Source of the DNA: a virus
Lineage: Duplodnaviria; Heunggongvirae; Uroviricota; Caudoviricetes
Strand: one strand, 5' to 3'
IMG/VR virus record: IMGVR_UViG_2778261066_000006
Length of the DNA stretch: 5,039 bases
Below the pieces are notes generated by a model. The model saw only the letters and a list, made by a program, of their open reading frames with translations, ran no database searches and was not told the origin of the DNA. Shown here in pieces: positions 2,824-5,039 of the stretch. Position 1 is the first letter of the stretch, and every line of letters begins with the position of its first letter. The position numbers and the translations under genes are program-made.

Positions 2824-2875
2824 AAAAAAGGGAGAAACTACCGATATCACTCGATAATCTCTCCCGTTGATTTTT
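2824..2875 (-). terminator. Weak hairpin between the 69-aa ORF and the tape-measure-like ORF (GGGAGA/TCTCCC stem, 24-nt loop, T-runs on both sides); possible attenuator or partial terminator
   Basis: 6-bp stem 2830-2835/2860-2865, flanked by AAAAAA (2824-2829) and TTGATTTTT (2867-2875). The large loop makes it a weak candidate. Confidence 0.25.
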
Positions 2876-3125: not shown

Positions 3126-3836
3126 TTAAAGTGTCTTGCTATACTTCTGAGAAATCTTAGTAAGCTGCTCAATATCAGCCTGCATAGCAATCTTCTTCTG
3201 CGTTTCATAGTCACTGATTAGTTGCTTCATAGCTCTAAGCTGGTTAGCAAGCTCTTGCTTAAATCTGTTTAATTTTTTGCTATGACGCTCAAGTAGATTC
3301 TTTTCAGCTAACTGACAAATCTCTTCATCTGTTTTATCAGACAGTAAAATATATGAACCTGTACCGCGTGAAGCTGGTCTAACATCAATTAAACGGAATC
3401 CTTCAGGGATGTTTTGAAGAACTTTTGAGATATTCTCTCTTGCTGTACCAAAACCATCATTATCTTCAACTGAGTAATATACGAATGGATTTTGTCTAAT
3501 TTCCACTTCAATATCAAAATCAGTTGGCTTTTCAGTCTCTTCAAAGTTCTTCACATTGTCGTAAGCGTCATCTAATCTAAGGCGCTGTGCTTTTAACTGT
3601 GGGTAATATTCACGCTCAAGATTAAATAGTGCTTCAGTTTTACCAATATCGGGCATCTCTTGAGGCTCAGGCGTCACAAAGATGATTTCCTTTGGTGACA
3701 TCTTTAGCGATTGCTCAAGCTTAATTCTTTCATCGTGTTCTTTACGCTGAATAGTGATAGCTGGATGTTCAGTCTGTGGCGACCAGTCACCGAAGCTATC
3801 AATCTTTTTACCGTTAATGTAAATATCGTTTGTCAT
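3126..3836 (-). CDS. hypothetical protein (236 aa), acidic/charged with predicted coiled-coil C-terminus
   Basis: ORF with SD AAGAGGA (revcomp of ~3844-3850) ~7 nt upstream of the ATG. Same AT-rich composition as its neighbours. First gene of an apparent 236aa-69aa-(tape measure) transcription unit. No recognisable domain. Confidence 0.7.
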   Translation of the reverse strand: MTNDIYINGKKIDSFGDWSPQTEHPAITIQRKEHDERIKLEQSLKMSPKEIIFVTPEPQEMPDIGKTEALFNLEREYYPQLKAQRLRLDDAYDNVKNFEETEKPTDFDIEVEIRQNPFVYYSVEDNDGFGTARENISKVLQNIPEGFRLIDVRPASRGTGSYILLSDKTDEEICQLAEKNLLERHSKKLNRFKQELANQLRAMKQLISDYETQKKIAMQADIEQLTKISQKYSKTL

Positions 3837-3865
3837 TGTTTTTTCCTCTTCTAAGCTAAAGTATT

Positions 3866-3951
3866 TCAGTTTTTAAAAAGCACACCTGACAGCCTACAAA
3901 CTTAGAAGAGACTTAAAAGGCGGTTTGCCAAGTATGCTTTTTAAAAACTGA
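3866..3951. repeat. Perfect 17-bp inverted repeat pair (TCAGTTTTTAAAAAGCA at 3866-3882; TGCTTTTTAAAAACTGA at 3935-3951) flanking a 52-bp spacer; candidate operator or regulatory element upstream of the 236-aa gene
   Basis: Directly read: the two arms are exact reverse complements. Each arm also contains the palindrome TTTTTAAAAA. The pair sits 30-115 bp upstream of the 236-aa ORF start. Confidence 0.5.
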
Positions 3952-3986
3952 ATAGCCCTAGATAATTTCTTATAAAGGGCTATTCA
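3949..3986 (-). terminator. Candidate intrinsic terminator (11-bp stem TGAATAGCCCT/AGGGCTATTCA, 16-nt loop) followed on the minus strand by G+UUUUU
   Basis: Perfect 11-bp stem read directly. On the minus-strand transcript the stem is followed immediately by GTTTTTAAAAAGC. Could terminate transcripts from the 107-aa gene, though it lies ~330 nt downstream of that stop. Confidence 0.4.
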
Positions 3987-4315
3987 TAAGGTGAAGAAAT
4001 TAAAAAAAACATCTGAAGGATTCAATAACGAATGAACAAGAGTACTTTTCGAGATGACCTCTCAGACTAACCTGAAAGGCCATGTAGCGAAAAGCATTGC
4101 ACCTTTCCAACTCAGAATATAGTTATCATCGATGTAGAGACGATTAATAGTTTAATTCAGGAAGAATTGCTCTCCCCTATATACAATCTTCTCATGCTTA
4201 AGGTTATTTGTCAACAGCTTTTTAACAGATTGGTAACATCAATTCTTATTTACTGTGTTACCCACCCAGCAACCAACAAATAGCCCTAGCAACGTCCAAG
4301 CAATTATTAAACCCA

Positions 4316-4639
4316 TTAGTGAACCCTCACAGAATCCGTAACCAGAATATTGTCAGCGTGCAAAATTACTATAGCCGCCTTGAGATATTGTTCAGGGCTA
4401 ACACTGTATTTGTTCGTTTCTTCGATAATAATACGCTTCATGTTTGAGTCTGTAATTGGTAGCATCATTCGAGGCTCGTTAAACTCCACCGACTGAATAA
4501 AGTCAGAGATGCTTTCCGCATTATCAGCCATTAACTCTAACAACTTATCAAAGTCAATGATAATACCTGCATCAGTGAAAGCCTGAATCATCATGGTGGT
4601 GTCGCTATCAACGAAAATCTGTAATTCGTAATTATTCAT
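4316..4639 (-). CDS. hypothetical small acidic protein (107 aa; ~18 Asp/Glu vs ~7 Lys/Arg)
   Basis: ORF with SD AGGAGA (revcomp of 4649-4654) 9 nt upstream of the ATG, TAA stop at 4316-4318. No recognisable domain. Confidence 0.65.
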   Translation of the reverse strand: MNNYELQIFVDSDTTMMIQAFTDAGIIIDFDKLLELMADNAESISDFIQSVEFNEPRMMLPITDSNMKRIIIEETNKYSVSPEQYLKAAIVILHADNILVTDSVRVH

Positions 4640-4910
4640 TTCTTAAAATCTCCTTTTTACCAGACCTCCTCAATCGCTCTGTAACGAGCTAAACAGTCTT
4701 TTTCAGGGGTAGCCTGTACAGTGGTATTACCCACCCTAAAATAAGGTAGTTTTTTGCGTTAGAATGCGATTGAGAGCGTCTGAGAAGCTGTTTTTCTAAT
4801 TTCTCTTAAAGTCTCGGACTTGCATAAGATTTTTTGGTCTGGTATCGGCTCTGTTACCATTTCGATGGATAATTTGCTTGTTGGATTGATAGCCATGATA
4901 AAGGAACCAG

Positions 4911-4933
4911 GGTGATGCTGCCAACTTACTGAT
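4911..4933 (+). repeat. IS1 left terminal inverted repeat (IRL)
   Basis: GGTGATGCTGCCAACTTACTGAT is the canonical IS1 terminal repeat. Confidence 0.85.
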
Positions 4934-4965
4934 TTAGTGTATGATGGTGTTTTTGAGGTGCTCCA

Positions 4966-5039
4966 GTGGCTTCTGTTTCTATTAGCTGTCCCTCCTGTTC
5001 AGCTACTGACGGGGTGGTGCGTAACGGCAAAAGCACCGC
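4966..5039 (+). CDS. insA: IS1 InsA (N-terminal 24 codons; partial at window edge), GTG start
   Basis: Translation from GTG at 4966 gives (M)[24 protein letters not shown], the InsA N-terminus including its CxxC motif. Confidence 0.85.
   Translation, partial: [24 protein letters not shown]

Follow-up and report, generated by a model that had tools for sequence, protein, structure and literature searches.

A long inverted repeat ahead of a tail operon is best explained as the stem of a cis-regulatory leader RNA hairpin in a mobile island

A perfect 17-bp inverted repeat lying upstream of a 236-aa gene in the window (the whole 5,039-nt stretch of DNA that was analysed, from virus record IMGVR_UViG_2778261066_000006) is best explained as part of a new RNA motif of a familiar kind, a cis-regulatory leader RNA with an anti-RBS loop. 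The repeat is very likely an RNA structure and not a set of operators. In the reading we prefer, held with somewhat better than even confidence, it forms the stem of a leader RNA hairpin that would control translation of the tail operon in cis, probably with processing by RNase III. The full mechanism set out below stands at about even confidence.

Results

The inverted repeat and the strand on which it folds

The perfect 17-bp pair reported by the sequence-only reading was confirmed. TCAGTTTTTAAAAAGCA occupies 3866-3882 on the plus strand and its exact reverse complement 3935-3951, with 52 bp between the arms and their centres 69 bp apart; TTTTTAAAAA is present inside both 17-mers. With up to three mismatches tolerated, these two sites were the only matches to the 17-mer in the window, and 200 dinucleotide-preserving shuffles of the window gave a mean of 0.07 matches, with two copies in none of them (0/200). 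The pair is the longest inverted repeat of the window. It lies within a 479-bp gap (3837-4315) upstream of the 236-aa ORF, the left arm being 30 nt from the ATG.

The repeat extends to 27-nt arms (3865-3891 and 3926-3952) with 89% complementarity. All three DNA mismatches in these arms are G.U pairs on the minus strand, the coding strand for all genes here, and A.C on the plus strand, and the minus-strand stem therefore runs to ~25 contiguous pairs in the window, G.U pairs counted. This structure, termed hairpin B, is made up of a 5' arm (3926..3952, minus strand; UUCAGUUUUUAAAAAGCAUACUUGGCA) that holds the right-hand 17-mer and pairs, with covariation, with 3865-3891, an apical loop of 34 nt (3892..3925, minus strand), and a 3' arm (3865..3891, minus strand; UGUCAGGUGUGCUUUUUAAAAACUGAA) that holds the left-hand 17-mer. 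Folding of 3837-4010 gave -63.2 kcal/mol for the minus strand (z = -8.3) and -44.8 for the plus strand (z = -3.5). Hairpin B alone was at -41.4 kcal/mol, to which the AU-rich lower 13 bp contribute ~-17.4.

The same strand preference was found in relatives. For the comparison, 81 related loci were collected from E. coli genomes, one other Escherichia genome, viral contigs and metagenomes, and 62 distinct leaders, reaching from the terminator 3' arm to the ATG, were cut from them; six further type-4/5 leaders from E. coli genomes brought the number of distinct leaders to 68. The sense strand was the more stable in 62/62 distinct related hairpins (mean -35.1 vs -23.7 kcal/mol), and the non-Watson-Crick stem cells comprised 162 G.U vs 26 A.C, the 26 being essentially one polymorphic position. 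Strand, covariation and folding evidence thus favoured the large RNA structure that the sequence-only reading had offered as its secondary suggestion; that reading mentioned neither the complementarity of the loop to the RBS nor the terminator hairpin just before the structure. Hairpin B was also considered as a terminator, possibly a bidirectional one, and rejected: its loop is 30-36 nt long, no U-run follows the full stem, and the terminator scan did not call it. A5/U5 tracts beside the upper stem were seen in type 1 alone.

Conservation of the stem by covariation

A stem of 21-29 bp was present in all leaders of the first set (62/62) and one of 25-27 bp in 6/7 type-4/5 leaders, L208 giving no usable automatic stem count. 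The arm-to-arm complementarity of the repeat was kept in homologues, and the sequence of the arms was not. The perfect 17-mer is peculiar to the variant in the window; in the commonest related type-1 variant, position 5 of the arm is C and an A.C mismatch results, and other relatives have wholly different arm sequences. The first 62 leaders contained 16 distinct arm pairs in four families, and the six additional type-4/5 leaders (beside L080) contributed one more lower stem (L208) as well as a fifth family (L209), so that at least five arm families exist whose lower-stem sequences are unrelated and always paired. The lower stems by family include CAGUUUUUAAAAA/UUUUUAAAAACUG, CUUAAUAGA/UCUAUUAAG, UUUUCGUCAAGUA/UACUUCACGAAAA and AAUUCAUAAAA/UUCUACGAAUU.

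RNAalifold predicted 19 contiguous pairs, with compensatory changes in 13/23 predicted pairs. In helix 1, the stem, 97.8% of cells were paired and both sides had changed in 11/26 pairs. For the whole tested structure, the observed pairing or covariation score was reached in 0/500 column shuffles, a count that overstates independence and partly reflects relatedness, since the stem covariation consists of a handful of allele replacements (~five families) with few independent substitutions. Two other observations are free of this weakness, namely the strand asymmetry and the slide control, in which moving the 3' partner by one column lowered pairing from 94.7% to <=56%.

A covariance model built from the alignment recovered one copy per island at 96-126 bits, with an antisense echo of just 25-42 bits. 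As a negative control served the loci from a scan of viral contigs for the gapped DNA pattern CACTTGG...CTGAGTGT, which was too loose; the model found no match in 928 kb of these unrelated contigs (100/120 loci from the scan). Rfam was searched in full, with the window at E <= 1 and the complete leader of a relative at E <= 5, and no family matched. The sub-threshold matches (rhtB sRNA, plant or animal miRNA precursors and unrelated small-RNA models) reflect a generic long hairpin.

Complementarity between the apical loop and the ribosome-binding site

The RBS region of the 236-aa gene (3845..3856, minus strand; GCUUAGAAGAGG) has the Shine-Dalgarno sequence GAGG/AGGA and is followed by the ATG at 3836-3834. 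It is complementary to a segment of the hairpin B loop (3900..3911, minus strand; UCUCUUCUAAGU), and the predicted duplex is at -17.9 kcal/mol. Every leader had 9-13 contiguous loop-RBS pairs over the Shine-Dalgarno sequence, with duplexes of -14.5 to -19.6 kcal/mol vs ~-6 to -7 for the 16S anti-SD at the same sites. The duplex was better than those of 1000 shuffled loops in all types (p 0 to 0.015; p=0.003 for the window segment). By our own calculation, chance would produce an exact 9-nt match between a loop of ~33 nt and an RBS region of ~25 nt ~once in 600 cases. An apparent pairing of the loop with codons ~97-103 of the 236-aa gene (21 nt, 90%) was set aside as chance, the best loop-CDS duplex site differing in each relative.

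In the alignment, helix 2 (loop-RBS) was 88.8% paired. Its changes were mainly one-sided (U-A/U.G/C-G), both sides having changed in 3/13 pairs of the main alignment, and the deviations in its core were G.U on the sense strand. Types 1-3 have a common loop core, and the specificity classes are few. Loop CCUCUUCUAAGU goes with RBS ACUUAGAAGAGG, and loop UCUUCUAAGUGU with ACACUUAGAGGA. The pairing is best supported by the type-4 and type-5 leaders, whose register differs: RBS AGAGGUGAA accompanies loop UUCACCUCU in five E. coli genomes as well as in L080, and L209 combines loop AUUCACCUC with RBS GAGGUGAAU.

The stem could nevertheless serve as structure only, either as an mRNA-stabilising 5' stem-loop or as a plain RNase III site, the loop-RBS match having no regulatory role. 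Such a reading shares all the structural evidence described above, and hairpins are common in phage polycistronic mRNAs (the T7 R sites, the lambda N leader); the limited covariation of the loop-RBS helix also speaks for it. It leaves the loop to be accounted for, however. The 3' part of the loop varies freely among relatives, with indels, while the anti-RBS segment is its most conserved stretch; leaders with a different RBS carry a matching, different loop; and the complementarity beats shuffled loops in every type. We consider a purely structural role unlikely.

Layout of the leader

An alignment of the 620 nt upstream of the ATG from 13 diverse relatives revealed a common order along the mRNA, which runs from a 25-aa ORF through a promoter, a structured leader, one or more terminators, hairpin B and a linker to the RBS and the ATG. 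The promoter of the relatives is nearly invariant, with TTGACA-17-CATAAT and an upstream TG (11/12 consensus matches in L003). Its counterpart in the window (4186..4214, minus strand) has TTGACA at 4214-4209, a 17-nt spacer and GAAGAT at 4191-4186, and this -10 looks degenerate because most relatives have CATAAT with the upstream TG. The distance from promoter to ATG is ~250 nt in the window and ~450 nt in L003. A scan of the minus strand over 3837-4315 called no sigma-70-like promoter, at the repeat or elsewhere, and inspection of the hairpin by eye found neither a P2/P4-type late-promoter dyad (TGT-N12-ACA) nor sigma-70 hexamers.

Between the promoter and the terminator lies the structured leader (3987..4185, minus strand), with a 5' stem-loop (GGGGAGAGCAAUUCUUCC) and a conserved block (beginning GAAAGGUGCAAUGC). 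The block holds a covarying hairpin (GGCCUUUCAG/CUGAGAGGUC) and is kept in all 478 island-bearing E. coli genomes. The leader is followed by hairpin A (3949..3986, minus strand), a GC-rich stem (AAUAGCCCU...AGGGCUAUU) and then CAGUUUUU, which is the window's version of an intrinsic terminator. Such a terminator precedes hairpin B in every relative, with the canonical AGGGCUUUUUU in most, and hairpin A has the features of a terminator in most relatives. Each leader contains one or two GC-rich hairpins with T-runs, and L003 has three terminator-like sites vs 0.3 expected. Hairpin B always starts within the T-run of the last terminator, which supplies the first bases of its 5' arm.

The same leader was found ahead of proteins just 25-29% identical to the 236-aa protein, which makes the leader the better conserved module. 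In relatives, the near-consensus promoter is followed by ~150-250 nt of conserved structured non-coding RNA that ends at the terminators (L003 5519-5900). The terminated product would be a small RNA, in a layout comparable to lambda 6S RNA or StxS.

The start of the hydrophobic 25-aa ORF (MGLIIAWTLLGLFVGCWVGNTVNKN; 4239-4316, minus strand) overlaps the 107-aa gene's stop codon (TAATG). Diverse relatives conserve this ORF, which carries no RefSeq annotation and may encode a small membrane peptide.

Proposed working of the leader RNA

From the sequence we infer transcription through hairpin B, cleavage by RNase III and the direction of the effect on translation. The leader would be transcribed from the near-consensus sigma-70 promoter ~250-450 nt 5' of the ATG, and the transcript would pass through the structured RNA and one or two intrinsic terminators, so that hairpin B would be present solely in RNAs reading past the last terminator. 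In these RNAs the loop could pair with the RBS of the 236-aa gene and block initiation, because the duplex is ~three times as stable as the 16S anti-SD pairing.

The geometry of the region bears on how such pairing could take place. The linker between hairpin B and the RBS is only 4-10 nt long, too short to span an intact helix of 25-29 bp (~70 Å), and a cis pseudoknot with an intact stem is therefore sterically implausible; this argument is our own geometric estimate. Pairing in cis would then need the lower stem to be opened or cut. The energy of the lower 13 bp (~-17.4 kcal/mol) is near that of the loop-RBS duplex (-17.9), and hairpin B offers the dsRNA stem of ~20 bp or more that is typical of an RNase III-type substrate, duplexes of such length being substrates of E. 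coli RNase III. In the most economical model, cutting of the read-through RNA by RNase III would probably determine if the operon mRNA keeps the anti-RBS attached, and thereby if the 236-aa gene is translated.

The short linker, which by our inference hampers pairing in cis, could also point to a processed antisense RNA that acts in trans in the manner of P1 c4, with hairpin B binding the RBS on its own transcript and on those of related elements that share the host or newly enter it. The usual design of antisense RNAs, with the recognition sequence on the apical loop of a stable stem, is present, the RBS-overlapping target is part of the same transcript, and different loop/RBS classes exist. 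Two of them co-occur in E. coli GPEC1035 (NZ_CM142796), which has two islands, L004 and L210, with leaders of type 1 and type 4; two classes in one genome would make sense if the loops acted in a class-specific way. Against this, no Rfam family, not even C4, matched the window or the full leader of a relative, and types 1-3 have the same loop core, which leaves few specificity classes. We regard action in trans as improbable. The more specific version, in which hairpin B is cut from the read-through RNA, probably by RNase III, and its loop acts in trans on tail-operon RBSs of its own class, likewise seems improbable. Were it true, the element would be an RNA-based, class-specific switch with which a small tail-gene island, perhaps a phage satellite of a new kind, controls its tail genes or shields them from co-resident relatives and helper phages.

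Readings of the repeat as a DNA element

As its main reading, the sequence-only reading had taken the repeat for an operator pair of a dimeric repressor. In its fuller form, the arms would be double-stranded DNA sites for a repressor dimer or tetramer that controls a promoter of the 236-aa gene by looping out the 52-bp spacer. The perfect 17-bp inverted pair and the 10-bp palindromic core of each arm are what such sites would look like, and the complete island encodes an HTH-domain protein (a weak HTH_Crp_2 match). The comparison with relatives did not bear this reading out. A search for further copies of the 17-mer in 33-49 kb loci with complete islands found one pair in each and nothing more. 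In relatives the arm sequences have been swapped for unrelated ones with their complementarity kept, a pattern not expected from selection by a conserved DNA-binding protein. The commonest variant breaks the 17-mer by its A.C mismatch, the mismatches are strand-asymmetric, with G.U on the sense strand alone, and no sigma-70-like promoter was predicted at or after the repeat, the conserved one lying ~250-450 nt upstream. An operator pair is thus very unlikely. Annotation should accordingly not treat a perfect inverted repeat ahead of a gene as an operator by default.

Scarcely credible is a DNA-level site, be it a cruciform or hairpin that serves packaging (cos/pac), recombination or the start of replication, or a MITE's terminal inverted repeats: a long inverted repeat does lie in a large non-coding gap, and many islands have an HNH endonuclease gene two genes upstream, such genes often adjoining cos sites, but the strand-asymmetric G.U pairs indicate RNA, a median of one place per genome at a constant island position does not fit a dispersed repeat, the attachment sites of the island are at the wrbA or yecE junctions beside the recombinase, and the loop-RBS complementarity would be left unexplained. 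MITE or IS terminal inverted repeats do not fit, as there were no dispersed copies and every examined locus has the repeat in the same island gap.

Discussion

Comparison with known systems

The cis-acting leader proposed here combines features that are known separately. The RNase III hairpins of T7 (R0.3-R1.3), the lambda N-leader and lambda sib are, like hairpin B, long untranslated dsRNA stems in phage-type polycistronic RNA, with a stem of two or more helical turns directly upstream of an RBS. Access to the following RBS changes on processing in T7 0.3 and in the lambda N leader. The full hairpin of lambda sib exists solely in RNA that reads through a terminator, and hairpin B would by analogy be confined to read-through transcripts too. 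Hairpin B differs from all of these in having no sequence or Rfam relation to them, an almost perfect stem of up to 29 bp, a loop of 30-36 nt, and an RBS that is complementary to the apical loop instead of lying inside the stem. The proposed leader would also work like leaders that sequester an RBS.

The c4 RNA of the P1/P7 immI operon and the related P4 CI and N15 CB RNAs resemble the leader in that a loop is complementary to a downstream target on the same transcript. RNase P releases c4 as a multi-stem RNA of ~77 nt that has two target boxes. In P1 its target overlaps the RBS of icd, the first gene, and c4 thereby blocks both translation and expression further downstream; matched changes in loop and target distinguish P1 from P7 c4. 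The hairpin B loop likewise complements a downstream gene's RBS within one transcript; the Rfam C4 covariance model gave no match. Regulation of ant by c4 is stated in a passage of PMC8201110 that cites Citron and Schuster (1990). Unlike c4, the island leader has a single long hairpin with one target, and the genes it precedes form a tail module, not an antirepressor.

With the lambdoid PR'/6S/tR' late leader, the island leader shares a strong, constitutive-looking sigma-70 promoter, a non-coding leader, an intrinsic terminator and structural genes in this order, and the analogy suggests that expression of the operon depends on terminator read-through. No Q-like antiterminator gene or qut-type element was identified. 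The leader sequences are unrelated, and lambda has no anti-RBS hairpin after tR'.

Fold-back inhibition of the IS10/IS50 transposase mRNAs provides the fourth comparison. Transcripts that enter these elements from upstream carry an extra RBS-complementary segment, and translation of the read-through RNA is blocked. Hairpin B similarly places an RBS complement in read-through RNA; in IS10 the complement pairs with the RBS as a simple stem, whereas in hairpin B it is on the loop of a separate long hairpin. An internal promoter that bypasses hairpin B was not found.

To our knowledge, no description exists of an arrangement that joins terminator read-through, a long RNase III-type duplex and an apical-loop anti-Shine-Dalgarno. 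The unusual point is that the anti-Shine-Dalgarno lies on the apical loop and not in the stem. If the cis reading is true, the leader is an undescribed cis-regulatory RNA motif, absent from Rfam and with unusually clear covariation; it would show how a compact mobile island turns on its tape-measure and distal-tail genes, and stem and loop mutants would offer a handle on the biology of the island.

The mobile island and its degraded copy in the window

The window contains a small mobile island in degraded form. Positions 75-866 are a wrbA/yccJ region 91% identical to E. coli, and from 865 on the sequence lies inside the tape-measure gene. Compared with the intact island L002 (12072-14998), ~2.9 kb have been deleted at the junction 865-867, which removed the attachment site, the 5' end of wrbA, the large serine recombinase, the Dit-like gene and the 3' end of the tape-measure gene. 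The deletion joins wrbA (without its first ~39 nt) to the tape-measure interior and creates an artificial ORF of 647 aa at 850-2793. At the other end, 4911-5039 is the left end of an IS1, 98% identical to copies in 4,963/5,426 E. coli genomes whose insertion lies upstream of the 107-aa gene region, and L002 has nothing that corresponds to 4648-4910. With its degenerate -10 and an island truncated by both the deletion and IS1, the leader element in the window may no longer be functional. The host is probably another Escherichia lineage, because wrbA/yccJ shares just ~91% identity with E. coli and the island had no match at >95% in any E. coli genome, although the nearest cluster of the 236-aa protein bears the label Shigella sonnei.

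Intact relatives of ~11-12 kb were found between wrbA and ymdF in 480/5,426 complete E. coli genomes (~9%), at 85-93% identity. The integration site is wrbA (loci L001, L002, L082 and L203), and a second lineage with its own serine recombinase is in yecE (L204). The repeat and leader occurred at 527 places in 478 genomes, all chromosomal, with a median of one place per genome, and the leader motif was also present in Shigella, Salmonella and Citrobacter. On one strand, the island carries a methyltransferase or small recombinase gene, the HTH protein, small ORFs, sometimes the HNH endonuclease, the 107-aa ORF, the ~480-bp gap, the 236-aa and 69-aa genes, a terminator, the tape measure and the Dit-like protein; the large serine recombinase is on the opposite strand. 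No capsid or terminase genes were found in the island. Among 50,697 phage records, neither the 236-aa protein nor the leader had a match, the matches to the window being short tape-measure stretches alone, and no description of the island or the leader was found in the literature. The island may represent an as yet undescribed type of phage satellite or of tail-module parasite.

The tail operon

The 236-aa gene (3126..3836, minus strand) is the first of the operon and is followed by the 69-aa, tape-measure and Dit-like genes. Its product had no match in Pfam, PHROGs, NCBIfam or the phage records. Comparison with PDB sequences gave weak matches, the best at E = 1.5e-5 to RPB_PLP3_R6 over query residues 148-210, which were judged uninformative. 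An AlphaFold model of mediocre confidence (pLDDT 68) has long coiled coils and a small beta domain and no BFVD match at E <= 0.001. The closest cluster, at 94% identity, is labelled Shigella sonnei. RefSeq labels the protein 'transposase' in hundreds of genomes; no domain library backs this label, and it looks like an unsupported propagated annotation.

Between the 69-aa and tape-measure genes lies a strong intrinsic terminator (2830-2865, minus strand) with a 15-bp stem and T6, so that expression of the tape-measure and Dit-like genes would also need read-through or a separate promoter. Within the tape-measure gene, a stretch of ~150 bp (1732-1887) shows 79-83% DNA identity to the tape-measure genes of Felixounavirus-type virulent phages from Citrobacter, Escherichia, Shigella and Salmonella. 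This similarity hints at possible partners of the island in an exchange of tail modules.
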